The notes beneath the pieces are model-generated. The model was given only the letters and a program-made list of their open reading frames with translations. It did no database searches and was not told the DNA's origin. 64,000 bases of DNA from an uncultured delta proteobacterium. GTDB lineage: Bacteria; Myxococcota; Myxococcia; Myxococcales; Myxococcaceae. A program made the translations under genes and the position numbers. Below are positions 45,506 through 61,757 of this stretch, piece by piece (position 1 is the first letter of the stretch; every line of letters starts with the position of its first letter). The stretch covers positions 3,552,001-3,616,000 of the forward strand of contig CAWCKH010000004.1 of the NCBI GenBank assembly GCA_963796055.1. Direction: 5' to 3'.

Positions 45506-47803
45506 ATGGTTCCATCGGCCATGAGAACTCGTGTGGGCCGCGCGCTGGTCGCAGCCGTCGGGGCACTGGTGCTCGGGTGTCTCGGCTTCGTCGCCGGGCC
45601 GCTGCCCCCCGGGCTGCTCGACCCGGCCGGCACGCTGAGTGTCCGCGTGCTCGACCGCGACGGCCAGCTCCTCCGGGAGCTTCCCTCCCGCCGAAGCTCG
45701 CGCAGCATCTCGCTCCCGACGGATGCGCCCGTGCCCGCCGTGCTGCGCGACGCCTTCATCGCCTCGGAGGACCGGCGCTTCGAGTGGCACCCCGGGGTGG
45801 ACCCACTGGCCATCGCCCGCGCGGCGGTGAGCAACCTCCGGGCGGGTCGGGTGGTGAGTGGCGCGTCGACCCTCACCCAGCAGCTCGCGCGGCTGGTCGT
45901 CCCGCGCCGGCGGACGCTCGCCGGCAAGGCGGGGGAGGCGCTCTGGGCCCTGCGGCTGTCGGCACACCTGTCGCGTGAGGACATCCTCCGCGCCTACCTG
46001 GACCGGGTGGCGCTGGGGCACGACCTCGTCGGGGTCGAGGCGGCCGCACAGGCTTACTTCGGTCGGCCGGCGAGCGCGCTGTCGGCCGGGCAGGCGGCGC
46101 TGCTCGCGGCCATCGCCCGTTCCCCGGCCCGGGTGGACCCGTGGGGAGATCCCGGGGTCACCATGGAGGCGATGCGCGAGGTGCTCGCACGGATGCGCCG
46201 GGGCGGACGGCTCGACGCCCAGCTGGAGCGGGTGGCCGCGACCGCGGACCTCGACGTCGTCCCCCCGGCCCGGCCGTTCGGCGCCCCGCACCTGGTGGTC
46301 GACCTCGCCGGAAAGCTCGGCACGCTCGGCCTCGGCGGCGCGGTGGAGGTGCGGACCACCCTCGACCCGGCACTCCAGCGCGACGTCGAGCGCGCGGTGC
46401 GCTCGGAGCTGGCCGCGGACCCGCGTCTCGGCCAGGCCGCGGTGCTCGTCCTGGACAACGCCTCGGGCGAGGTGCTCGCCTACGTGGGCTCGGCGGATTT
46501 CCGGGACGACGCCCACGAGGGTCAGAACGACGGGGTCCGTGCCCGCCGCCAGCCCGGGAGCGCGCTGAAGCCCTTCGCCTACGGGCTGGCGCTCGCCAGC
46601 GGCTGGACCCCGGCCTCGGTGCTGAGCGACGTGGATCTCGAGGTGGGCACCGCCGGCGGTGCCTGGCTCCCGCGCAACTACGACCGGCGCCAGCACGGAC
46701 CGGTGCGCCTGCGGGCCGCGCTGGCCAACAGCTACAACGTCCCGGCGGTCGAGCTGACCGACGCGCTCGGCCCCGAGCGAGTTCTCGACGTGCTCCGCGA
46801 GGCGGGTTTCTCCGCCCTGGATGCCAGCGCCGAGCACTACGGCGCCGGGCTGGTCCTCGGGAACGGCGACGTGTCGCTCTGGGAGCTGGCCCGGGCCTAC
46901 CGTGGGCTGGCCCGCGGAGGCATCGTCGAGCCGCTCCGGCTGGTGCGTGCGGCGACGGACCCGCTGGGCGAGCGGGTCGAGGCCAGGGCCGAGCTCGCCC
47001 CCCGGCGCTTCCTGCCCGCGGACGCGGTGGCGCTGCTGACCGACCTCCTCTCGGACGAGATGGCCCGCGCGCCGGCGTTCGGCCTGGACAACGCGCTCCG
47101 GCTGCCCTTCCCGGTGGCGGCGAAGACCGGCACCAGCCGGGCGTACGTGGACAACTGGACCGTGGGCTTCACCCGCGAGCGCACGGTGGCGGTGTGGGTG
47201 GGGAACTTCGATGGCCGGCCGATGCAGCGGGTCTCGGGCATCACCGGGGCGGGGCCTCTCTTTGCCCGGGTCATGCGCCGGGCGATGGTCGGCCTGCGTC
47301 CGGCGCCGCTCGTGGACCGCGCGCGGTTCCAGCGGGTGCGCATCTGTCCGCTCTCGGGTCATCGAGCCGGGGAGGCCTGCCCGGGCTCGTTCGAGGAGGT
47401 CTTCCTCCCCGGGACCGCGCCGACCGAGCCGTGCGTGATGCACCGGATCGCGGACGGTCGGCGGGTGCTCGCCCTCGACGCGCGGTACAGCGGCTGGGCC
47501 GAGCGCGAGCGGCTCGAGGTCGCGGCCGGGGAAGGTGGCGGCGCTTCCCCGGGCTTCATCACCCCGCGTGACGGGGACGAGTTCCTGGTGGAGGCCGGCA
47601 TCCCGACCACGTCGCAGACCATCCCGGTCCGGGTACGGGGCGGCGGGGCCGCCCGGTTGTGGGTCGATGGACGGGCGGTGGAGCTTGACGCCGGCCGCTC
47701 GGTGCGGCTCCCCCTGAGCGGCGGGACGCACGCGCTGGAGCTCAGGGCCCCAGGCTCACCGGACCCCGTCCAGCGCATCCAGGTCCGTGTGCGGGGGCCG
47801 TGA
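45506..47803 (+). CDS. pbpC: Penicillin-binding protein 1C
   Basis: EDRRF, GASTLTQQ (transglycosylase); SALK, SYN, KTG (transpeptidase); canonical A2M partner. Confidence 0.93.
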   Translation: MVPSAMRTRVGRALVAAVGALVLGCLGFVAGPLPPGLLDPAGTLSVRVLDRDGQLLRELPSRRSSRSISLPTDAPVPAVLRDAFIASEDRRFEWHPGVDPLAIARAAVSNLRAGRVVSGASTLTQQLARLVVPRRRTLAGKAGEALWALRLSAHLSREDILRAYLDRVALGHDLVGVEAAAQAYFGRPASALSAGQAALLAAIARSPARVDPWGDPGVTMEAMREVLARMRRGGRLDAQLERVAATADLDVVPPARPFGAPHLVVDLAGKLGTLGLGGAVEVRTTLDPALQRDVERAVRSELAADPRLGQAAVLVLDNASGEVLAYVGSADFRDDAHEGQNDGVRARRQPGSALKPFAYGLALASGWTPASVLSDVDLEVGTAGGAWLPRNYDRRQHGPVRLRAALANSYNVPAVELTDALGPERVLDVLREAGFSALDASAEHYGAGLVLGNGDVSLWELARAYRGLARGGIVEPLRLVRAATDPLGERVEARAELAPRRFLPADAVALLTDLLSDEMARAPAFGLDNALRLPFPVAAKTGTSRAYVDNWTVGFTRERTVAVWVGNFDGRPMQRVSGITGAGPLFARVMRRAMVGLRPAPLVDRARFQRVRICPLSGHRAGEACPGSFEEVFLPGTAPTEPCVMHRIADGRRVLALDARYSGWAERERLEVAAGEGGGASPGFITPRDGDEFLVEAGIPTTSQTIPVRVRGGGAARLWVDGRAVELDAGRSVRLPLSGGTHALELRAPGSPDPVQRIQVRVRGP

Positions 47804-47812
47804 CGAGCCGGT

Positions 47813-47962
47813 TCACACCGACGCGACCACCGCCCCCGCCCGCTGCACATCCGCGCGGACGAGGACGAGGAAGGGCAGCCCCATCAGGCAGAGGAAGCAC
47901 GCCACCGCGCACCGTACCCGCGCCCAGCTGCGGAACTCGGTCCGGTCGAGTTGGATCATCAT
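47813..47962 (-). CDS. Small membrane/secreted peptide, paralog 1 (truncated, 49 aa)
   Basis: AGGAGG RBS; WARVRCAVACFLCLMGLP...ADVQ aligns with 48885..49124. Confidence 0.65.
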   Translation of the reverse strand: MMIQLDRTEFRSWARVRCAVACFLCLMGLPFLVLVRADVQRAGAVVASV

Positions 47963-48013
47963 GGCCACTCCCTCCTTTCTGAACAGGCAGGTCGCCCGTG
48001 CACGCCTGGAGGT

Positions 48014-48029
48014 TGCACCCGCCGTGCCG
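48014..48029 (-). promoter_or_regulatory. Sigma54 promoter of paralog 1
   Basis: CGGCACGGCGGGTGCA (GG-N10-GC). Confidence 0.7.
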
Positions 48030-48123
48030 GATCCACGTTGCTGAAAACACGGGGGAGTCCGCTCGGCCGGTGTGACCTCCACGTCCACCCTGGGCCGGCG
48101 CCTGTTGCGGCTCAGGCAAGAGA

Positions 48124-48770
48124 TCAGCGCGGAGCCGTCGGAAGGTCTCGCAGTACGTAGAGGTGCCCCAGGGTTCGGCCGAACATCAACGCCAGCTCCT
48201 GGCCGTCCGGTGACACCGCCACGTGCGCCGTGCCGAGCCAGCCCGTCGGGTCGACGGGCCCGAGGCTGCGCTCCTCCAGCACCTGCCCGCGAGTGAGGTC
48301 GATCCGGAAGAGCCGGGCCAGCTGACCGGCCCAGGACCTGCGCTGGCGATCCGTCCACCCGCGCATGACCACCAGGGCCGGCTGCAGCCCGGTGAGGGTG
48401 GGGAGCGGGCTCGCGACCGAAAAGAGGATTCTCCGGTCACGGGAAAAGGAGGCGAGGGTGTTGCTCCAGTCGGTCCACGACAGCAGCGTCTGCTTCCCGG
48501 TCCGGTCGAAGTGGACGACCTCGGACCGTTCGAACTGGTTCTCCAGGAGCACGCTCCATCGGGACCGATGTCCTCGAGATGGATGTCGGACGGGGCCTGG
48601 TACACCTCCCGCTGCCGCCCGCGTGGGTCCACCGCGAGGAGGGTGTTCCGCCCCAGCTCTCCGGTGGTGACCCATACCTCCGCGTCGTCCGGGGACCAGG
48701 CCAGTCCCTCGGCGCCGAGGACCGAGACGATCTGGTAAGGCCCGACCTGGTCACCCGGGCTCAGCTGCAC
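48124..48770 (-). pseudogene. Ser/Thr kinase-beta-propeller gene remnant (internal deletion plus frameshift)
   Basis: VQLSPGDQVGPYQIVSVLGA (kinase N-terminus) joins directly to EGLAWSPD (PD40/TolB-like); frameshift near 48557; ends VSPDGQELA...LYVLRDL. Confidence 0.7.
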
Positions 48771-48884
48771 GTCGACCGAGCCCAGCCGAGGTCGCTCCGG
48801 CGCGACGGACCCAGAAACGAGAGCGGGGCCACCGACACGCCCCCGTGTCCGTGGCCCCGCGTTCACTCTCTCCTATGGAGAGCC

Positions 48885-49124
48885 TCAGCGATTCGAAGGG
48901 GACATCGCCAGCAGGGCCTCGTCCGAGCCCGGGCCGATGTCCAGCCCCGCCTGGGCCACGTGCACCACGCCAGGCACCGACTCCGTGAAGACGGGGGCCA
49001 CGGCGGCCTCGGAAGGCTGAACGTCCGCCAGCGCAAGCGCAATCGGGAGCCCCATCACGCAGAGAAATCCCGCCGCCACGCTCCGCACTCGCATCCAGCT
49101 GCTGCCCTCGGTCTCGTTCATCAT
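48885..49124 (-). CDS. Small membrane/secreted peptide, paralog 2 (79 aa)
   Basis: GGAGGAG RBS; N-terminal hydrophobic helix; C-terminal AGLDIGPGSDEALLAMSP. Confidence 0.75.
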   Translation of the reverse strand: MMNETEGSSWMRVRSVAAGFLCVMGLPIALALADVQPSEAAVAPVFTESVPGVVHVAQAGLDIGPGSDEALLAMSPSNR

Positions 49125-49177
49125 GGCCTGCTCCTCCGTGGCGCCGTTTGCTTCGGCGCCCGACAGGTTCCGGGGAC

Positions 49178-49193
49178 TGCAGCCCTGGTGCCT
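49178..49193 (-). promoter_or_regulatory. Sigma54 promoter of paralog 2
   Basis: AGGCACCAGGGCTGCA (GG-N10-GC). Confidence 0.7.
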
Positions 49194-49313
49194 GGCTCAA
49201 GTCGTTGAAATCACACTTCTTTCAACACGATTCCGTCGCGCCGGTATCTACAGGAGGCCCCGGGCGTTGCCGGCGAGGCAACATGTCGACCGGGGTTGGC
49301 ACAGGAGGGGTCG

Positions 49314-50288
49314 ATGTCGGAGGAGCGGCTGCGGTACCTCGCTGAGGCGGATGTGCGCGCGGCGGGGCCGCCGCTGCCGGAGCTCGTCCGGGCCCTCGAG
49401 GCGGCCTTTCGTGACCTGGGGGAGGGCCGAGCCGAGGTGCCAGCGAAGCTCGGCGTGCATCCGTCGGCCGGCTCCTTCTTCCACGCCATGCCAGCGCTGT
49501 GGCTGGGAGCATCCGCCGCGGCGGTCAAGTGGGTGGGCTCCTTCCCGGGGAATCGGAGCCGTGGCCAGCCGAGCATCTCGGCGCTGCTCGTCCTGAGCGA
49601 TCCGGACGACGGCCGGCCGCTGGCGATCATGGACGCACGCTGGCTCACCGTGCAACGCACGGCGGCGTGCTCCGCGCTCTCGGCGAGGTTCCTTGCCCGG
49701 CCCTCGGCGCGCAGCCTCGGAGTGCTGGGGTGCGGGCTCCAGGCGCGAGCGCACGTGGAGGCGTTCCGGGCGCTCCTTCCGCTCGAACGGGTGCGGGCGT
49801 TCGACCGTCACCCGGAGCGGGCAGCCGCGTTCGCCGAGGAGGTCGCGCGTGCGCACGGCGTCGATGCCAGCGCGCATGCCTCGGTGCAGGAGGTGGTGGA
49901 GGACATGGACGTCGTCTTGACCGCGGGCGCCATCGGCACCCTTCCGGACCCGCCCATCGCCGCGGGCTGGCTCGCGCCGGGAGCCTTCGCCTGCAGCATC
50001 GATTACGCGAGCCCCTGGAGCGGGGGTGCGCTTCGCGAGCTCGATCTGGTGTCCACGGACGACCGGGCGCAGCTCGAGGCGGCGCGGAAGACCGGGCCTC
50101 TGGCCCGGCTCCCACCCGTGCACGCCGACCTCGCCGAGCTGGTCACCGGGCGCAGGACGGGGCGAACGGCCGAAGCCCAGCGCACGATGGCGTGCAACCT
50201 CGGATTCGCGCTCGCCGACCTCGCCGCGGCGGCGCTCGTGGTCCGGCGTGCCCGGGACGCCGGGCTGGGGACCCTCCTTCCCCTCTGA
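49314..50288 (+). CDS. Ornithine cyclodeaminase/mu-crystallin family protein
   Basis: KWVGSFPGN, RTAACSAL, GCGLQA, GFALADLA; AGGAGG RBS. Confidence 0.9.
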   Translation: MSEERLRYLAEADVRAAGPPLPELVRALEAAFRDLGEGRAEVPAKLGVHPSAGSFFHAMPALWLGASAAAVKWVGSFPGNRSRGQPSISALLVLSDPDDGRPLAIMDARWLTVQRTAACSALSARFLARPSARSLGVLGCGLQARAHVEAFRALLPLERVRAFDRHPERAAAFAEEVARAHGVDASAHASVQEVVEDMDVVLTAGAIGTLPDPPIAAGWLAPGAFACSIDYASPWSGGALRELDLVSTDDRAQLEAARKTGPLARLPPVHADLAELVTGRRTGRTAEAQRTMACNLGFALADLAAAALVVRRARDAGLGTLLPL

Positions 50289-50309
50289 ACGCTCACCGAT
50301 GGGTGGCGT

Positions 50310-50540
50310 TCACTCGGGCATGGGCGAGGTCACCAGCAGCGCCTCGTCCGAACCCGGCCCCACGTCGATTCCCGCCGCCGCCTCGTGCATCGAGGGAGGC
50401 ACGTATCCACTGACCGAGGAGGTCGCCTCCGGTGCCGCCGGGTGAACCCCCGCGGTCGCCAGGGTGACGAGCGCCGTCACCGACAGGAACCCCAACAGCA
50501 CGTTCCGCACCCACCTCGGCCCATCATTCGCATTGCTCAT
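50310..50540 (-). CDS. Small membrane/secreted peptide, paralog 3 (76 aa)
   Basis: GGAGGA RBS; hydrophobic N-terminal helix; C-terminal AGIDVGPGSDEALLVTSP. Confidence 0.75.
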   Translation of the reverse strand: MSNANDGPRWVRNVLLGFLSVTALVTLATAGVHPAAPEATSSVSGYVPPSMHEAAAGIDVGPGSDEALLVTSPMPE

Positions 50541-50597
50541 CGCCGTTCCTCCAGCACGGGCGCCGTGTCCAGTCGGTCGCCCTCATGCAGGCACGGC

Positions 50598-50613
50598 TGC
50601 AGAGTCGGTGCCT
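50598..50613 (-). promoter_or_regulatory. Sigma54 promoter of paralog 3
   Basis: AGGCACCGACTCTGCA (GG-N10-GC). Confidence 0.7.
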
Positions 50614-50782
50614 CGCGCAAGTGCCCGGGCTCAGCGCAGGCTCAACACGGTGGTGTGACTTCGCAGGCTGCAGCCGCGCGGAGGATGTCGCGGCGGCGGC
50701 AACCGCACGCCTCGTGCGGCGCGCGATCGCACACAGCGCCGTGTCGCAGAGAGGCCCCTGAACGCGCAGGGACGAGCACCCG

Positions 50783-51775
50783 TCAGAGCGGGCGGCGCAG
50801 GACCCGCGACAGCTCGCCGATGATGCCCCGGCGGAACGCCAGCACGCAGACCACGAACAGCGCACCCTCCACCACCGTCACCCAGCCGCCGAGCTGGGCC
50901 AGGTAGCTCTCCACACAGACGATCACCACCGCGCCGACGATGGGGCCGAACACCGTCCCCAGGCCCCCGAGCAGCACCATGAGAATCACCTCGCCCGAGG
51001 TTCCCCAGTGCACGTCGGTCAGCGAGGCCAGCTCGAAGACGATGGACTTGGTGCCACCGGCAAGCCCGGAGAGCGCCGCCGAGAGCACGAAGGCGATGAG
51101 CTTGTACTGGTCGGACTTGTAGCCGAGCGACACCGCCCGCGGCTCGTTCTCGCGCACCGCCTTGAGCACCTGCCCGAAAGGCGAATGGACGACCCGGAAG
51201 ATGAAGAAGAAGCCGAAGAGGAAGATCGCCAGGACGACGAAGTACATCGCCAGGTCGTTCTCCAGTGACAGCAACCCGAGCAGCTTCCCGCGCGGCACTC
51301 CCTGGATGCCGTCCTCGCCGCCGGTGAAGGGGGCGCGAAGGCAGAAGAAGTAGAACATCTGCGCGAGCGCCAGGGTGATCATCGCGAAGTAGATCCCCTG
51401 GCGGCGGATGGCGAGCCACCCCACCGCCAGCCCCAGCAGGGCGGCGGTGACGGTCCCGGTGAGCACCGCCAGCTCGAAGGGCAGCCCCCAGACCTTCGCC
51501 GCATGGGCCGCCAGGTACCCCGCGCCCCCGAAGAACAGCGCGTGCCCGAACGAGAGCAGGCCCACGTACCCGATGAGGAGGTTGAACGCGCAGGCGAACA
51601 GCGCCCAGCACAGCATCTTCATCAGGAACACCGGGTAGACGACGAACGGCGCCCCCAGGGCCAGGACGATCAGGATCGCCATCGGGATGCGCAGGGAGCG
51701 GAGCTCCTCCCTCGCCTTGGTACGGTCGCGGATGCCGGCGCTCGTCTCCGCCCCGGTTGCCCCGTGCGCGGTCAC
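50783..51775 (-). CDS. livM: Branched-chain amino acid-type ABC transporter permease (LivM-like)
   Basis: GLLSFGHALFFG, YFAMITLA, TGGEDG, AVRENE. Confidence 0.88.
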   Translation of the reverse strand: MTAHGATGAETSAGIRDRTKAREELRSLRIPMAILIVLALGAPFVVYPVFLMKMLCWALFACAFNLLIGYVGLLSFGHALFFGGAGYLAAHAAKVWGLPFELAVLTGTVTAALLGLAVGWLAIRRQGIYFAMITLALAQMFYFFCLRAPFTGGEDGIQGVPRGKLLGLLSLENDLAMYFVVLAIFLFGFFFIFRVVHSPFGQVLKAVRENEPRAVSLGYKSDQYKLIAFVLSAALSGLAGGTKSIVFELASLTDVHWGTSGEVILMVLLGGLGTVFGPIVGAVVIVCVESYLAQLGGWVTVVEGALFVVCVLAFRRGIIGELSRVLRRPL

Positions 51776-55525: not shown

Positions 55526-57289
55526 TCAGCGTTCGGTGACGTACAGCCCCGGAGCGTCCGCCAGCGGCGGGTACTCCTCGCTCCCGATCATCGCCGGAGG
55601 TGGCCGGCGCTCCCCGGCCCGGGCTTCGATCCATCGGGCCCAGGCGTGCCACCAGGTGTCCGTGTGGCGCGTCGACGCAATGCGCCATGCCTCCGGCGAC
55701 TCGTGGAGATGCTCGTGCAGCCAGTAAGCGGCACTCTTGCTCGGCGGGTTCACCACCCCGGCGATGTGGCCCGAGCTGCTCAGCACGAACTGGACCTTCC
55801 CCCCCAGCAGGCTCGTGGTCCGGAAGGCCGCCCGCCACGGGGTGATGTGGTCCTCCACGGCGGCGACGATGAACGTGTCCTGCTCGATGGAGGAGAGGCG
55901 GAGCCGCTGCCCGCGGACGACCATCTCGTCGCGGGCGAGCGCGTTGTCCAGGTAGCAGCCACGCAGGTACTCGGAGAGGAGCCGGGCCGGGATGCGCGTG
56001 CCGTCGTCGTTCCAGGCCAGCAGGTCGAAGCCGGGCGGTTCCTCGCCCATCATCCACGCCGAGCCGAAGTAGTTGAAGTACAGGTCGTTGGGGCGGAGCA
56101 GGTTGAAAGTGCGGGCCATCTCGAACGACTCGAGGAGGCCAGTGCGCTGCACCCGGCGGAGGAGGCGCTCGATGGTGGGCCGGTCGGTGAACGCTCCCAG
56201 CGGGCCGGGGTCGCTGAAGTCCACCAGGGTGTTCATCAGGGTCAGCGAGTTGAGCGAGCGGTCCCCGATGGCCTCGAGGTACGCGGCGAGCATCGTGGCC
56301 AGCGTGCCGCCCACGCACAGGGCGGCGACGTTGACCTTCGGCGCACCGGTGATCTCCTTGACCACCCGCAGTGCCTCCAGCGGACCCTCGACGAGGTAGT
56401 CCCCGTACCCCACATCACGCAGGCTCTGGTCCGGGTTCCGGTAGCTCATGCAGAACGTGGTGTGGCCGTTCTTCACCGCCCACTCCACGAAGCTGCGGCC
56501 GGGGGCGAGGTCCATGATGTAGTACTTGTTGATGAACGGCGGGCTGCAGAGGAGTGGGACGGAGAACGTGGTCTCGGTCTGCGGCGAGTACTGGATCAGC
56601 TCGAAGAGCCGGTTCCGGTAGACGACTTTCCCCGGCGTCGCCGCCAGGTTCTTGCCCACCTCGAAGCCGGAGTGGTCCACCAGCCGCGGCCAGCCCTCGC
56701 GGGTGCGGAGGTCGTCGAGCCACTTGCGCAGCCCCCGCACCGCGCTCAGCCCGCCGGACTCGAAGGCTCGCCGCAGCGCGACCGGGTTGGTGAGGAAGAA
56801 GTTGGTGGGGGCGAAGGCGTCCACCAGCAGCTGGCTCGCCATGCTTGCCTTTCGGGTGGAGACCTCGCCCAGTCCGGCGGCGGCGAGGAGGTCGCGGGCG
56901 AGTTGCTCGCGGAGCAGGTGCTGCTGGAGCAACCAGAAGAAGAGCGCGTTCTCGTTCCAGATCCGGTCGCCGAACCGCCGGTCCTTGGCCGGGATCGGCA
57001 TCGGGCCCTCGGCGGTGGCGCCCACCGCGCGGCCCGCGCTCACCCCCGCGGCGACCAGTGCGCCGTTCGCCCAGCGCACCAGAGCCCTGGCGGTGGCGAG
57101 CGGATGCCGTGCCAGCCCCGCGGCCTCGATGCTCAGGGCCCGGCCGAAGCCCACCGGGTCCACCCGATCGAGGAGCTCGTCCACCGCCCGGCGCAGCCCG
57201 CCGCGCACCTTGCTCGGAGGAGCGGGGGAGGGCAGCGGCGGCTCGACGTCGACCGGCGGGGCGCGCTGCGGAAGCTCGAGCACCTTCAT
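55526..57289 (-). CDS. phaC: Polyhydroxyalkanoate synthase (class I/II type)
   Basis: DRRF, PTNF, ATPGKVV, PPFINKYYIMDL, lipase-like box ALCVGG, DHITPW, GHIAG. Confidence 0.93.
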   Translation of the reverse strand: MKVLELPQRAPPVDVEPPLPSPAPPSKVRGGLRRAVDELLDRVDPVGFGRALSIEAAGLARHPLATARALVRWANGALVAAGVSAGRAVGATAEGPMPIPAKDRRFGDRIWNENALFFWLLQQHLLREQLARDLLAAAGLGEVSTRKASMASQLLVDAFAPTNFFLTNPVALRRAFESGGLSAVRGLRKWLDDLRTREGWPRLVDHSGFEVGKNLAATPGKVVYRNRLFELIQYSPQTETTFSVPLLCSPPFINKYYIMDLAPGRSFVEWAVKNGHTTFCMSYRNPDQSLRDVGYGDYLVEGPLEALRVVKEITGAPKVNVAALCVGGTLATMLAAYLEAIGDRSLNSLTLMNTLVDFSDPGPLGAFTDRPTIERLLRRVQRTGLLESFEMARTFNLLRPNDLYFNYFGSAWMMGEEPPGFDLLAWNDDGTRIPARLLSEYLRGCYLDNALARDEMVVRGQRLRLSSIEQDTFIVAAVEDHITPWRAAFRTTSLLGGKVQFVLSSSGHIAGVVNPPSKSAAYWLHEHLHESPEAWRIASTRHTDTWWHAWARWIEARAGERRPPPAMIGSEEYPPLADAPGLYVTER

Positions 57290-59265
57290 CGTTCACTCCC
57301 TGATGGCGAATGCCGCGACTGTCGCCGGCGCTTGAGGGACTCGAGCGCGTGGCGCTGGGTGTCGAAGAGCTCGGGGTCCACGTGGTGTGCCTGCAGTGAC
57401 GCGCCCAGCTTGAGGCGCAGGAAGGCGCTGGAGGTGTAGCGGGTCACCCGCTCGTAGTAGCGCTCCGTGAGCTGCCGGACCAGCTCTGCGTACGAATCCG
57501 TCAGGTGGGCGGGCACATTGAAGCCGTCGTAGTCCACCACCGCCCGGACGCGCCGGCCCAGCGGCTTGCACACCTCCTCCACCGTCTCGGCGATCCGGCG
57601 GAGGTCCTCCTCGCTCCGGAGGGTGAGCCCGGCGAAGTTGATGAACAGCACCTCGCGCCGGGGGTCGAACTCGAAGCGCGAGGCGAGCGGGCGCTCCTCG
57701 AGCATCGCCCGCAGCCCCATTGCCTCGGCGCGGAAGAGCCGGGGGTCCATGGTCCTCAGCGGCCGCTTGATCTCCGGGGTGAAGTCCATCTGACCGAGCA
57801 CCTCGTGCTCCAGGTCGATGCCCGGGGCAATCTCCTCCAGCCGAATGCCGGAATCGGTGAGCCGGAACACCGCGCGCTCGGTGACGTACATCGTCTCGTG
57901 GCCGGTCTCTCTGGCGCGCTGGCCGCTGAACGTGACCTGCTCGACGGCAGGGATGAATTTCCGGCTCCGGCCCTCCTGGAGGATGCGGAGCCGCCCGTCG
58001 CCGATCTCCAGGGTGAGGCCGCCGCAGGTGAAGGTACCGACGAACACGACCTTGCGGGCGTTCTGGCTGATGTTGATGAACCCGCCACAGCCGGCGAAGG
58101 TCGACCCGAAGCGGCTGACGTTGACGTTACCCTTGGCGTCCACCTGGGCCATGCCCAGGTAGGCCTGGTCGAGCCCGCCCCCGTCGTAGAAGTCGAACTG
58201 CTGGTTCTGGTCCACCAGAGCCTCGGTGTTCACCGCCGCGCCGAAGTTGAGCCCCGAGGCGGGCAGCCCCCCGATGACCCCGGGCTCGGCGGTCAGGGTG
58301 AGCAGGGGCAACAGGCCTTCCTCCGCCGCCACGCCGGCCACCGACTCGGGCATGCCGATGCCGAGGTTGATCAGCGTGCCGGGGACGAGCTCGGACGCCG
58401 CTCGGCGGCCGATGACCTTCCGCCCGTCCAGGTGGGGAGGGGGAAGGGTCTCCAGCGGGACGCGCAGCTCGCCGGAGAAGGCAGGGCTGTACGGCGTGGC
58501 GTAGGTCTGCGCGTGGTACTCGGCCGGGGCCACCGCCACGCAGTCCACCAGCGCGCCAGGAATCTTCACGCTCCGTGCAGGGATGGAGCCGGCCTGCGCG
58601 AGGCGCTCCACCTGGACGATGACCACCCCCCCGCTGTTCTTCGCCGCCATGGCCATCGCCAGGTTGTCGAGGGTGAGCGCCTCTCGCTCCATGCTCACGT
58701 TTCCGTGCGGGTCCGCCGTCGTACCCCGGAGGAAGACCACGTCGATGGGGAAGGTGCGGTAGAGGAGCCAGTCCTCGCCGTGGATCTGCACCAGCTCCAC
58801 CAGGTCCTCGGTGGAGCGGGAGTTCACCTTGCCGCCCCCGTTTCGCGGGTCGACGAACGTGCCGAGGCCGACGCGGGAGATCGTGCCTGGCTTGCCGGCG
58901 GCGATGTCCCGGTACAGGTGCGAGATGCAGCCCTGGGGGAAGTTGTAGGCCTCGATCTCCCCGGCGAGCGCCAGCGCGCCCACCCGCGGGATGAGGCCCC
59001 AGTGTCCGCCCACCACCCGGCGCAGTAGGCCGGGGATGGCCAGGCGATTCAGTCCCCGCGTCTTGCCGTCACCCTGACCGGCGGCGAAGACCAGGGTGAG
59101 CCCGCCCGGCCGTCCGTGGGTCTGGTAAGCGCGAGCCAGCGCATCGAGCAGCCCGTCGGGGGTGCCAATGCCCACGAACCCCGAGGTGGCGATGGTGTTG
59201 CCTGGCTGCACCAAGGCCACTGCCTCGTCGAGGCTCGCGACCTTGCTCACCGACGTGGGCGACAT
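57286..59265 (-). CDS. Acyl-CoA:acetate/propionate CoA-transferase (Pct/YdiF family) with ~130-aa C-terminal extension
   Basis: AAGQGD, GLGTFVDPR, NLGIGMP, catalytic EPG, QFDFYDGGG, GFINISQ. Confidence 0.9.
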   Translation of the reverse strand: MSPTSVSKVASLDEAVALVQPGNTIATSGFVGIGTPDGLLDALARAYQTHGRPGGLTLVFAAGQGDGKTRGLNRLAIPGLLRRVVGGHWGLIPRVGALALAGEIEAYNFPQGCISHLYRDIAAGKPGTISRVGLGTFVDPRNGGGKVNSRSTEDLVELVQIHGEDWLLYRTFPIDVVFLRGTTADPHGNVSMEREALTLDNLAMAMAAKNSGGVVIVQVERLAQAGSIPARSVKIPGALVDCVAVAPAEYHAQTYATPYSPAFSGELRVPLETLPPPHLDGRKVIGRRAASELVPGTLINLGIGMPESVAGVAAEEGLLPLLTLTAEPGVIGGLPASGLNFGAAVNTEALVDQNQQFDFYDGGGLDQAYLGMAQVDAKGNVNVSRFGSTFAGCGGFINISQNARKVVFVGTFTCGGLTLEIGDGRLRILQEGRSRKFIPAVEQVTFSGQRARETGHETMYVTERAVFRLTDSGIRLEEIAPGIDLEHEVLGQMDFTPEIKRPLRTMDPRLFRAEAMGLRAMLEERPLASRFEFDPRREVLFINFAGLTLRSEEDLRRIAETVEEVCKPLGRRVRAVVDYDGFNVPAHLTDSYAELVRQLTERYYERVTRYTSSAFLRLKLGASLQAHHVDPELFDTQRHALESLKRRRQSRHSPSGSER

Positions 59266-59393
59266 CCATGACCCCCTTCCGCAACGCCCCGAGGATCGAC
59301 AAAAAACGGCGGGTCGACCCGGGGCGCCGATGACGCCAGGGGACCCGCCGGGGTGTCAACCGGTGCTTCCCGGCCGACCGGTTCTTCGGGGAA

Positions 59394-59666
59394 CTAGTTC
59401 TTGGGGGTGATGAGGTCGAGCGTGCGCTGGGCGTACTCATTCATCGCCTTCCGCCACTGCGCGCTGATCTGCTCGCCGGCGGTGATGGCCTCCTTGGCCA
59501 CGCGGCCGGCCTCGTCCACGGCCGACACGGCCTGGGCGACGCCCTGCTTCTCAAACTTCTCCACCTCGGACAGCGCCGCGGTGAAGCGGCTGGTGGACTC
59601 CGCCATCAGCTTGAGCCACTCACTGCCGAACTGCTGCATCTGCGTGAAAACGGTCTTCTGGTCCAT
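59394..59666 (-). CDS. Putative phasin (PHA granule protein); in-frame upstream start at 59843
   Basis: 90-aa amphipathic helical, Ala/Gln/Glu-rich; GGGAGGAGA RBS; within PHA cluster behind PhaR-like boxes. Confidence 0.6.
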   Translation of the reverse strand: MDQKTVFTQMQQFGSEWLKLMAESTSRFTAALSEVEKFEKQGVAQAVSAVDEAGRVAKEAITAGEQISAQWRKAMNEYAQRTLDLITPKN

Positions 59667-59736
59667 GGTCTTCTCCTCCCGAAACTCCGGGTTCCCCCCT
59701 CGTGTAACACCTGGCAAACGCGAGTCAAGGGTCTTT

Positions 59737-59751
59737 TGTTGCGGTGCAGCA
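59737..59751. promoter_or_regulatory. Putative PhaR operator
   Basis: TGTTGCGGTGCAGCA near-palindrome just upstream of a minus-strand TTGACT -35. Confidence 0.65.
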
Positions 59752-59912
59752 AAATCAGCTGGCTGTGCGGCATTCTCCGCCGCGGGCCGCTGACTTCCGC
59801 CCGGCGTGCGCCGGGTCTGTCCTGAGCCGTTCTTCCGAGACATCGTGGTCTCCTCCCGGGTGCTGGGTCACTGGTCTGTCGCACCCCAGGCCGGTGGAGT
59901 CAAGTCCCGGTA

Positions 59913-59927
59913 TGTTGCAGTGCAACA
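59913..59927. promoter_or_regulatory. Putative PhaR operator
   Basis: Perfect palindrome TGTTGCA-G-TGCAACA upstream of a second minus-strand TTGACT. Confidence 0.7.
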
Positions 59928-59931
59928 GAAT

Positions 59932-60426
59932 TCATTTTCGGCGCGGTGCCCGGCGCTTCAGGCTGCGGCGGAGCGCGGCCACCTCCCGGCGGAGCTCCCC
60001 GAGCTCGTCCGGGGCTCCCGGGGCTCCCGGGGCGGCTGGCTCGGGTGGACGCGGGCGCTCCGGCGACGCCAGGGCGGGGAAGGGGCGGAGACCGGCGAAG
60101 GGGTTGTAGAGGCCTCCCAGCCCGGACCTGGCCTGGAGGTACATCTCCAGTGCCCAGCTCACGTACCGGCCCAGGAAGTCGGCCAGCGGCTCGTCTCCCA
60201 TGCGGATCAGTTGCAGCAGCAACGGAACGGGGAGGAGCCGGGCGGCGTTCCGGTCCTCGAAGATGATCTGGGCCAGGGTCGGGGCGGTCAGATCCGCGCC
60301 GCTCTTGGCATCCACGACCTGCACGTCCGCCCCGGCGCGAATCCGCTCGGCGATCTCGTCGAGCCGGACGTAGCGGCTTTGCTCGGTGTCGTAGAGGCGG
60401 CGGTTGCCGTACTTCTTCACCAGCAT
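59932..60426 (-). CDS. phaR: PHA synthesis regulator PhaR/PhaF DNA-binding protein
   Basis: KKYGNRRLYDTEQSRYV...VVDAKSGADLT...LAQIIFE; AGGAGG RBS. Confidence 0.92.
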   Translation of the reverse strand: MLVKKYGNRRLYDTEQSRYVRLDEIAERIRAGADVQVVDAKSGADLTAPTLAQIIFEDRNAARLLPVPLLLQLIRMGDEPLADFLGRYVSWALEMYLQARSGLGGLYNPFAGLRPFPALASPERPRPPEPAAPGAPGAPDELGELRREVAALRRSLKRRAPRRK

Positions 60427-60466
60427 GGGTCGCCTCCTATCAGGGACTTGGCCCTGTGCCACTTCC

Positions 60467-60481
60467 TGTGCAGTTGCAGCA
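60467..60481. promoter_or_regulatory. Putative PhaR operator in the phaR/phaZ divergent region
   Basis: TGTGCAGTTGCAGCA, a TGC/GCA box similar to the other two. Confidence 0.5.
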
Positions 60482-60542
60482 AATGTGGGACGACGAACAA
60501 AGGCTGGACCGGCGGGCAGAGGGTCAATAGATTCTCGAATCA

Positions 60543-61757
60543 ATGTACTTCGCCCACGACCTCGGCCGGGCGTTCGCCCTCCCAATTCACACCTGGGCGT
60601 CGATGCTCCGGACGGCGTGGACCCATCCCTTCAACCCGGTCTCGGTGCTGCCCCCGGTACGGGCGATGGCCGCGGCGGCCGAGATGGTCGAGCGGGCCAC
60701 GGCCGCGTACCCCAAGCCCTCCTTCGCCCTCGACTCCACGGTCATCGACGGCCAGGAGGTCGCGGTCCGGGAGCAGCTGGTCCACGAGACGCCCTTCTGC
60801 CGGCTGCTCCACTTCGAGCGGGACGTCCCCCGCGACGACCCGAAGGTCCTCCTCGTCGCTCCGCTCTCCGGTCACCACGCCACGCTCCTCCGCGAGACGG
60901 TGCGCGAGCTGCTGCCGGACCATGACCTCTACGTCACCGACTGGGTGGACGCGCGCCTGGTGCCGCTCGGCGGCGGGAAGTTCGACCTCGCCGACTACGT
61001 CGACCTCCTCATCGCTCACTTGCGGGAGCTCGGGCCCGAGGTGCACATCCTGTCGGTCTGCCAGCCGGCGGTGCCGGTGCTGATCGCCACCGCGATGCTT
61101 GCCGAGGCGGACGACCCGGTGCAGCCGGCGAGCATGGTTCTGATCTCGGGCCCGGTGGACACCCGGGTGAACCCGTCGTCGGTGAACCAGTTCGCCCGGG
61201 TGCACTCGCTGAAGGCGCTCGAGGCGCTGGTGGTCCACCGGGTGCCGGTCGGTCACCCCGGATCAGGCCGGCGGGTGTACCCGGGAATCTTGCAGCTGTG
61301 GTCCTTCATGTCGCTCGATCCGCACCGGCACGTGGACGCCCACGTGGGCTTGTTCAAGGACCTCATGAGGGGCGAGCTCGAGTCCGCCGACAAGCGCCGC
61401 AAGTTCTACGACGAGTACTTCGCGGTGATGGACCTGCCCGCGGAGTTCTATCTGGAGACGGTGCACCACGTGTTCCACCGGCACAGCCTGCCGGAGGGGA
61501 AGATGCTGCACCGCGGGAAGCCCGTGCGTCTGGACGCGATCCGCCGGACGGCGCTGATGACGATCGAGGGTGGGGAGGACGACATCACCGCCCCGGGGCA
61601 GACGTACGCCGCCCACGGCCTGCTCGCGTCCGTCCCCGCCGGCTGGAAGGACCACCTGCTGCTGGAGGGGGCAGGGCACTACGGGACCTTCAGCGGCCGG
61701 CGGTTCCGGGAGCGCGTCGCCCCACGGATGCGGGCGTTCTTCCGCGCGAGACGCTGA
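60543..61757 (+). CDS. phaZ: Intracellular PHB depolymerase
   Basis: VAPLSGHHATLLR, YVTDW, SVCQPAVP, DEYFAVMDL, EGGEDDI, GHYGTFSG. Confidence 0.93.
   Translation: MYFAHDLGRAFALPIHTWASMLRTAWTHPFNPVSVLPPVRAMAAAAEMVERATAAYPKPSFALDSTVIDGQEVAVREQLVHETPFCRLLHFERDVPRDDPKVLLVAPLSGHHATLLRETVRELLPDHDLYVTDWVDARLVPLGGGKFDLADYVDLLIAHLRELGPEVHILSVCQPAVPVLIATAMLAEADDPVQPASMVLISGPVDTRVNPSSVNQFARVHSLKALEALVVHRVPVGHPGSGRRVYPGILQLWSFMSLDPHRHVDAHVGLFKDLMRGELESADKRRKFYDEYFAVMDLPAEFYLETVHHVFHRHSLPEGKMLHRGKPVRLDAIRRTALMTIEGGEDDITAPGQTYAAHGLLASVPAGWKDHLLLEGAGHYGTFSGRRFRERVAPRMRAFFRARR

Follow-up and report, generated by a model that had tools for sequence, protein, structure and literature searches.

The locus described here lies in a 64,000-nucleotide stretch of DNA from an uncultured member of the Myxococcaceae (GenBank assembly GCA_963796055.1, contig CAWCKH010000004.1, positions 3,552,001 to 3,616,000). 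The whole stretch is referred to below as the window, and unprefixed coordinates are positions within it. Three short open reading frames (ORFs) on the minus strand, termed copies 1 to 3 (c1, c2 and c3), are each preceded by a sigma54-type -24/-12 site and, farther upstream, by an enhancer-like palindrome:

47813..47962, minus strand: c1, 49 amino acids (aa), a helix-only paralogue
48014..48028, minus strand: sigma54-type -24/-12 site of c1
48104..48120, no strand assigned: enhancer-like palindrome of c1, CTTGC-N7-GCAAC
48885..49124, minus strand: c2, 79 aa, near-invariant helix, variable linker and GPG motif; the best-conserved member
49178..49192, minus strand: sigma54-type -24/-12 site of c2
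49266..49282, no strand assigned: enhancer-like palindrome of c2, GTTGC-N7-GCAAC
50310..50540, minus strand: c3, 76 aa, hydrophobic helix, linker and GPG motif
50598..50612, minus strand: sigma54-type -24/-12 site of c3 (GG-N10-GC)
50687..50703, no strand assigned: enhancer-like palindrome of c3, GTTGC-N7-GCGAC

The coordinates and frames of the three ORFs agree with a preliminary description of this DNA, as does the end of c1 ahead of the motif. All three have a GGAGG-type ribosome-binding site (RBS) and a GC content at third codon positions of 0.87-0.94. In tblastn searches of the genome itself, c2 matched c3 with E=4e-13 and c1 matched c2 with E=6e-8, the next matches having E values of at least 0.14; on these alignments the paralogy of c1-c3 is beyond chance. 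The copies are also joined by DNA repeats of 80 nt (74%) and 69 nt (78%). The stop codon of c1 precedes the motif, which is found in no downstream frame, and c1 is short at two related loci as well (50 aa in L015, 46 aa in L016). Since three genomes have the short form, each with its promoter and palindrome preserved, c1 does not appear to be the product of a fresh nonsense mutation; it could still be a slowly decaying duplicate. No match to c1-c3 was found in Pfam or NCBIfam, the MgrB and SafA families included, and the same databases gave no match for the co-regulated small proteins scanned (see below). The preliminary description had likewise recognised no family. It had also called the peptides unannotated, which holds in that the family has no name, but homologues do carry the label 'hypothetical protein' in NCBI and JGI records. 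A PDB sequence search gave one match, with E=7.5, and the best ESM Atlas value was 0.85 (c2; a lipoprotein member), under the lead level of 0.9.

Judging from the homologues, c1-c3 are genuine genes under selection, and the family to which they belong has no name. With the query's own entry counted in both cases, 118 of 120 candidates were homologues of c2 and eight of 12 were homologues of c3, and those with names are hypothetical proteins of Myxococcaceae metagenome-assembled genomes. Searching 1.84 billion representatives with a profile yielded 22 matches, several of them frameshifted or noise, and a widened profile matched 13/13 genomes of the Myxococcaceae genus concerned. Of 401 genomes sampled across the phylum, 18 matched: this genome, 8/8 of the genus, 6/7 of the sister genus, and three with weak single matches outside both genera, which lay in long frames with no small motif gene where inspected. 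Weak matches inspected in other genera or phyla (L027, L032, L036, L063 and L065) either had no motif or fell in other reading frames. None of 87 pattern matches on viral contigs was a relative, and a degenerate DNA pattern written for the broader motif found 54 GTDB loci, three of them small family genes (all Myxococcaceae), the remaining 51 having no small gene with a helix. By these searches the family is lineage-restricted, with convincing members only in this genus and its sister genus among the genomes searched.

Members begin with a short N-terminus and a single hydrophobic helix; a variable linker then leads to the C-terminal HxAx[AS][GD]xDxGPGxxE (the GPG motif). Across 146 motif windows the constant element was HxAx[AS][GD]xDxGPGxxE-x-x-L; the hydrophobic segment and the motif are 27-37 residues apart in 162 of 163 proteins, and the motif lies 7-15 residues before the stop. 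GPGSDEALL, given as the active core in the preliminary description, does not survive in that form, as the family motif is longer and the S, D, A, L and L vary. In the sister genus some members start with a lipobox signal in place of the helix and keep the motif, and the motif is therefore placed outside the cytoplasm. Such lipoprotein members were seen at L088, L089, L098, L100 and L238, some in tandem and most with two upstream palindromes; two of these loci adjoin an M1 peptidase gene and several adjoin DUF899. This genome (G000) holds three further full-length members, near C4:3653878, 1161577 and 117695, plus two remnants. Those near 3653878 and 1161577 (L069, L070) have C-x-x-C in the motif and lie between HD-domain and alpha/beta-hydrolase genes, with no sigma54 site. 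A candidate helix-only variant of c2 (P0117) was rejected, since the matching ORF in L222 is followed by the motif in another frame.

The residues of the motif raise the question of metal-binding periplasmic peptides, in which His, Asp and Glu (in some members Cys) would chelate a cation such as Ca, Zn or Cu and buffer or present it under envelope or metal stress. In the 146 windows His is present in 122, Asp in 144 and Glu in 146, the last partly owing to how the windows were selected; C-x-x-C and single-Cys variants exist, and the net charge is -5 for the C-terminal part of c2 and -6 for that of c3. Some members read D-x-D-x-D-x-G-P-G-x-x-E, with acids at positions 1, 3, 5 and 12 as in an EF hand, and in this spacing and their extracytoplasmic location they resemble EF-hand-like DxDxDG calcium loops, among which Excalibur is counted. 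In c2 and c3, however, the first two acids are unconserved (positions 1 and 3 are mostly Q/N/E and G), position 6, the Gly of such loops, is V/I (V/I/T/N in the wider comparison), and position 8 is Pro. Neither the EF-hand-like/Excalibur D-x-[DN]-x-D-G motif nor the profile matched, Pfam, NCBIfam and PDB gave no match of this kind, and metal-handling genes do not recur among the scanned neighbours. The invariant helix and the helix-only members of the regulon described below would be left unexplained. Metal binding is unlikely as the account of the family, and it could be compatible with the membrane-tethered regulators proposed below.

Purifying selection among the homologues was evident in the ratio of nonsynonymous to synonymous substitution rates (dN/dS) by region. 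Pairwise values for c2 (15 genes) were 0.04 in the helix, 0.73 in the linker and 0.21 in the motif; for c3 (8 genes) they were 0.48, 0.69 and 0.14, and for c1 (3 genes) 0.17 over the first 25 aligned codons and 0.45 overall. The values are indicative, as the regular expressions used covered part of the c2 helix and of the c3 motif and the pairs are not independent; a motif-only seed search still recovered c2 genes having the same helix. A common 25-residue stretch, in which V/I alone varies, is shared by 94 of 119 c2-type proteins. The idea of the GPG motif as the core of the peptides is borne out in that the motif is conserved, but the c2 helix is under stronger selection, and the motif is not the core of all copies, c1 and most of the co-regulated genes having the helix only. 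Hydrophobicity of the helix (KD19, Kyte-Doolittle scale) is 2.1-2.3, basic residues lie ahead of it and the C-terminus is acidic; an N-in/C-out topology is predicted for the family proteins. The AlphaFold model has a helix at residues 4-33, a low-confidence part at 40-53 and a helix at 67-73 (predicted local distance difference test 62.5, predicted template modelling score 0.28). A type IV or Flp prepilin, in which a Gly cleavage site is followed by about 20 hydrophobic residues with Glu5, was rejected: in c2 the Gly is followed by 14 hydrophobic residues, Met occupies +5, and there is no Pfam match.

It could be that the proteins are precursors of secreted signal peptides, the helix being cleaved, the linker acting as a pro-region and the C-terminal ~20 residues being released as a cell-to-cell signal. 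An A-x-A-type site closes the helix in 117 of 119 c2-type proteins and is visible in c3 types, the linker is near-neutral, and the distance of the motif from the C-terminus is kept across differing N-termini. A c2-like N-terminus and promoter also head the lipoprotein ORF at C2:209080; an amino-acid ABC transporter adjoins here, and M1 peptidase adjoins sister-genus copies. The family shares a signal-like N-terminus, variable middle, conserved C-terminal segment and several paralogues with the Phr/PapR-type precursors of exported peptide signals. Unlike these, it has a Gram-negative host, no RRNPP receptor among the scanned neighbours, an invariant c2 helix and lipid-anchored members. A helix more constrained than the motif would be unusual for a disposable signal; moreover, the tether length is constant, c1 has no cargo, and no conserved processing site lies ahead of the motif. 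Secretion as a signal is, on balance, rather unlikely.

At c1-c3, GGCAC-N6-TGCA ends 51, 53 and 57 nt ahead of the ATGs, with the C of the GC at -53, -55 and -59; the distances of 53, 55 and 59 nt and the strong RBSs given in the preliminary description were correct. The pattern occurs just 34 times on both strands of the 5.5-Mb genome, and in orthologues and paralogues its GGCA(C/T) and TGCA blocks stay constant and the spacer varies. The designation as sigma54 promoters stands as regards the conserved -24/-12 sites, but the textbook T before GG and TT before GC are absent. Sister-genus copies have near-textbook sites, TGGCA(C/T)-N5-T(T/C)GC. The sigma54 consensus is given as TGGCACG-4N-TTGC(T/A) (PMC7910581). 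A sigma70 scan returned no promoters.

The possibility of a shared enhancer had also been raised, and a palindrome was found at all three promoters. In the alignment of upstream regions GTTGC-N7-GC(A/G)AC precedes c1, c2, c3 and most orthologues, standing about 90 or 80 nt upstream of the promoter. With this genome's own left out, 29 promoters and 26 palindromes served to train matrices, which were then applied to a held-out set of 47 promoters (51 from 59 metagenome loci minus four in training), some of which are closely related to each other or to training sequences. In this set 46/47 scored as -24/-12 sites and 44/47 also had the palindrome, the offset of which (19-mer from the GG) was -91 to -94 in 28 cases and -81/-82 in 16. 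These two spacings are about one helical turn apart, which would fit a looping activator. Taken together, c1-c3 very probably have a sigma54 promoter with a shared enhancer. Upstream dimer sites of sigma54 promoters usually lie within 80-150 bp (PMC7910581), and the combination of a -24/-12 promoter with such a site is shared with the Nla28 and NmpR regulons of Myxococcus xanthus. The Nla28 site is a CT(C/G)CG(C/G)AG repeat (PMC7910581) and the NmpR site is GCGCA-N5-TGCGC (PMC11841059), and the palindrome found here differs from both as there described; for Desulfovibrio vulgaris, TGT-N-ACA palindromes are given as a class among the enhancer-binding protein motifs (PMC4641369). The genome encodes RpoN and 33 strong matches to bacterial enhancer-binding proteins (bEBPs). 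In addition to the main rpoN gene there is a second, partial Sigma54_DBD match (G000:C5:237688-237879). In the gaps between palindrome and promoter (window 49193-49265, 50613-50686 and 48029-48103), short AT-containing blocks (such as TGTTGA, TGATT and CACTTG) recur in ~11-13-nt steps, which we take to be possibly a site for a bending protein such as IHF.

Palindrome and promoter occur together nine times genome-wide, against about 0.8 expected and 0-3 in nine control offset windows. Three of the nine are those of c1-c3, found partly by construction, and of the remaining six, five stand ahead of ORFs (51-139 aa) whose N-terminus is hydrophobic; a small hydrophobic ORF lies downstream of 8/9 combined sites vs 7/484 promoter-only sites. 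The loose regular expression gave 23 hits vs 12 in a reversed control for five further genomes of both genera, and 18 vs 36 for five genomes of other genera; hence only matrix-filtered hits are considered. In the two genera 12 of the 23 hits pass both matrices, 11 of them ahead of 46-76-aa hydrophobic ORFs and one ahead of a frameshifted family gene, and in the other genera 0/18 pass. The preliminary view of a co-regulated, envelope-targeted and family-less group of small proteins behind sigma54-type promoters is supported, and cleavage and export of these proteins are plausible. One of the combined arrangements, at C2:208400-209300 (L105), has a c2-like promoter, palindrome and N-terminus at the head of a lipobox ORF (C2:209080). 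A frameshift may separate this ORF from the rest of a larger lipoprotein with Ser/Thr-rich repeats, of which it would form the start, and the arrangement suggests shuffling of a promoter plus N-terminus module. At G000:C2:55503-57990 two similar hydrophobic ORFs (63-64 aa), one with a palindrome and sigma54 site, flank a divergent gene that we take to encode a threonyl-tRNA synthetase.

Most predicted regulon members amount to a basic patch and one hydrophobic helix. In this they recall membrane-active hydrophobic peptides such as TisB and Hok, or structural envelope fillers, which, induced together, would lower the membrane potential or remodel the envelope for dormancy. Hairpins were predicted at three places:

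48823..48861, minus strand: terminator-like GC-rich hairpin 3' of c2 (z -4.8)
49140..49160, minus strand: predicted 5'-leader hairpin upstream of the c2 RBS (z -2.7)
50558..50582, minus strand: hairpin predicted in the 5' leader of c3, directly ahead of the RBS (z -2.3), with conservation of both arms

The terminator-like hairpin is also found 3' of several c2 orthologues. Against a TisB/Hok-like role, the predicted leader folds leave the strong c2 RBS unobstructed, and Rfam gave no RNA family match over 47500-51000. A conserved periplasmic motif and lipoprotein variants would also be needless for such a role, which we regard as quite improbable.

A bEBP gene of FHA-AAA+-helix-turn-helix architecture, with an intact GAFTGA, lies at G000:C4:506574-507980, and two of the nine combined sites lie just after it. 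Around it, at G000:C4:505866-508831 (L104, L109), are four hydrophobic ORFs (54-62 aa) with their own sigma54-type sites and no Pfam match. This cluster is conserved in the genus, and one such gene is left in the sister genus. A palindrome, promoter and small hydrophobic gene lie beside the FHA-bEBP at 7/8 loci of the genus and 6/6 of the sister genus; among 11 FHA-bEBP loci of other genera, one has palindrome and promoter, ahead of a 272-aa ORF. Because palindrome, promoter and small gene flank it in both genera, the FHA-bEBP is the candidate activator, and it probably activates the c1-c3 promoters. FHA-domain enhancer-binding proteins are reportedly known in M. xanthus.

The likeliest interpretation of these data is that c1-c3 are outputs of a sigma54 regulon and act as membrane-tethered small envelope regulators working like SafA or MgrB. 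We give this a probability of roughly 0.45. An envelope or starvation-type signal would render the FHA-bEBP active, possibly under Ser/Thr kinase control; it would bind GTTGC-N7-GC(A/G)AC, loop to the sigma54 holoenzyme and open the promoters, so that a set of small membrane proteins would be switched on simultaneously. Each protein would insert N-in/C-out. The c2 helix is near-invariant, and we therefore infer that it packs against a membrane partner and is not discarded. A disordered linker of ~30 residues would keep the GPG motif, made up of a turn and a short helix, on the periplasmic side; there the motif would dock as a short linear motif onto a domain of the partner, and helix-only members such as c1 would act via the membrane segment alone. 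Membrane sensors are the likeliest partner class. Distant family copies often adjoin ECF (extracytoplasmic function) sigma/anti-sigma or kinase-ECF genes, which was counted in favour of tethered regulators. Such distant members were seen after kinase and ECF sigma genes or adjoining ECF sigma and zf-HC2 anti-sigma pairs (L025, L026, L087; L045/L098, L046/L099, L071).

SafA (65 aa) binds a cavity of the PhoQ periplasmic domain and MgrB binds the periplasmic and transmembrane domains of PhoQ, according to PMC12648545; MgrB is transcribed by the system on which it feeds back (PMC2789325 and PMC12648545). The likeness lies in size (47-65 aa vs 49-79 aa here), one membrane helix, a short periplasmic part and action on a membrane partner, the last proposed for c1-c3. 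The differences are the lack of homology, control by sigma54 and a bEBP instead of a PhoP-type regulator, the many paralogues and the lipoprotein variants.

Several observations weigh against tethered regulators. Consistent linkage to a partner was not seen: 1/30 loci of the kinase type carried a family gene (1.5 kb flanks), and the kinase adjoining c2 is decayed in this genome. The canonical FHA pattern has a phosphothreonine-binding Arg, and where it usually sits the FHA domain here has Ser, which weakens the case for kinase input. Relatedness of the bEBPs also tracks taxonomy, so their co-occurrence with the sites is weak evidence. The c3 helix is weakly constrained, and signal peptidase I could free the C-terminal part at the A-x-A-type site that closes the c2-type helix. 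Homologue sets were picked by sequence words or regular expressions, which inflates conservation, and relatives are not independent. Finally, the three further full-length, motif-bearing paralogues in this genome are without the promoter pattern, so that family and regulon overlap partly; one of them diverges from an ECF sigma/anti-sigma pair, and the other two come after HD-domain genes.

The neighbours with which the copies are interleaved are as follows:

48142..48770, minus strand: remnant of a Ser/Thr kinase-transmembrane-WD40-type gene, between c2 and c1; an intact relative is present in L018
49296..50288, plus strand: OCD/mu-crystallin family gene, divergent from c2

Their identities, and those of the adjacent A2M and pbpC genes, were as the preliminary description had them; a LivM-type permease is a further neighbour. 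The OCD/mu-crystallin gene is a frequent but dispensable neighbour, present at 36/59 metagenome loci and absent or incomplete in L004 and L017. What is left of the kinase gene is an N-terminal stub fused to the C-terminal third, with an internal deletion and a frameshift, and in L018 the intact relative of this membrane kinase sits after a c3-type gene. It is conceivable, and on our estimate improbable, that the GPG motif is a ligand of transmembrane Ser/Thr receptor kinases with periplasmic propeller-type domains, with FHA-bEBP feedback onto the peptides' sigma54 promoters and a dozen small membrane proteins as the whole output; this would be a feedback loop between peptide and receptor kinase in a Gram-negative bacterium.

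Gene context also bears on the RiPP (ribosomally synthesized and post-translationally modified peptide) precursors suggested in the preliminary description, in which the GPG motif would carry a modification, such as a thioamide installed by YcaO-TfuA. At L051 (3458-5787) a YcaO-TfuA pair is divergent from an additional c2-type copy, and at L058 another such copy sits beside YcaO; a copy of this type adjoins YcaO at two of the three YcaO-bearing loci of the genus. The same neighbours were seen at 1/59 metagenome loci, and YcaO is beside a c2-type gene in L280 (these counts overlap). In this adjacency of a few extra copies the family resembles thioamide RiPPs of the YcaO-TfuA kind; unlike in those, an export signal replaces the leader ahead of the motif. 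YcaO was found in 3/13 genomes of the genus and not in this genome, whereas the family is in 13/13, and no tailoring enzyme, protease or exporter recurs among the scanned neighbours, which makes a RiPP precursor very improbable. Elsewhere in the window, 55526-60585 holds a polyhydroxyalkanoate cluster with a PhaC-type synthase, a CoA transferase, a PHB accumulation regulator and a small unmatched ORF, presumably phasin-like.

A search of the open literature, without supplements, found no report of the c1-c3 family, of the GTTGC-N7-GC(A/G)AC palindrome or of a regulon composed almost wholly of tiny membrane proteins, and a published M. xanthus enhancer-binding protein motif or small-protein entry could be missed by it. 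Small membrane regulators and sigma54 regulons are already known kinds. The predicted regulatory anatomy is well supported by computation, and what the proteins do is a function that we infer. In contrast to the enhancer-binding protein regulons of M. xanthus, the predicted targets here are almost all tiny membrane proteins, and a sigma54 regulon with such an output is unusual. What emerges is a small-protein family without a name, together with a candidate bEBP site, its candidate activator and a predicted regulon, in a lineage of soil Myxococcaceae that is represented here by metagenome-assembled records only. FHA-domain bEBPs are common in the Myxococcaceae. The set of activator, site and targets is testable in vitro or in a laboratory host, with no need to culture the organism, and small genes labelled 'hypothetical' may be grouped by their promoter architecture.

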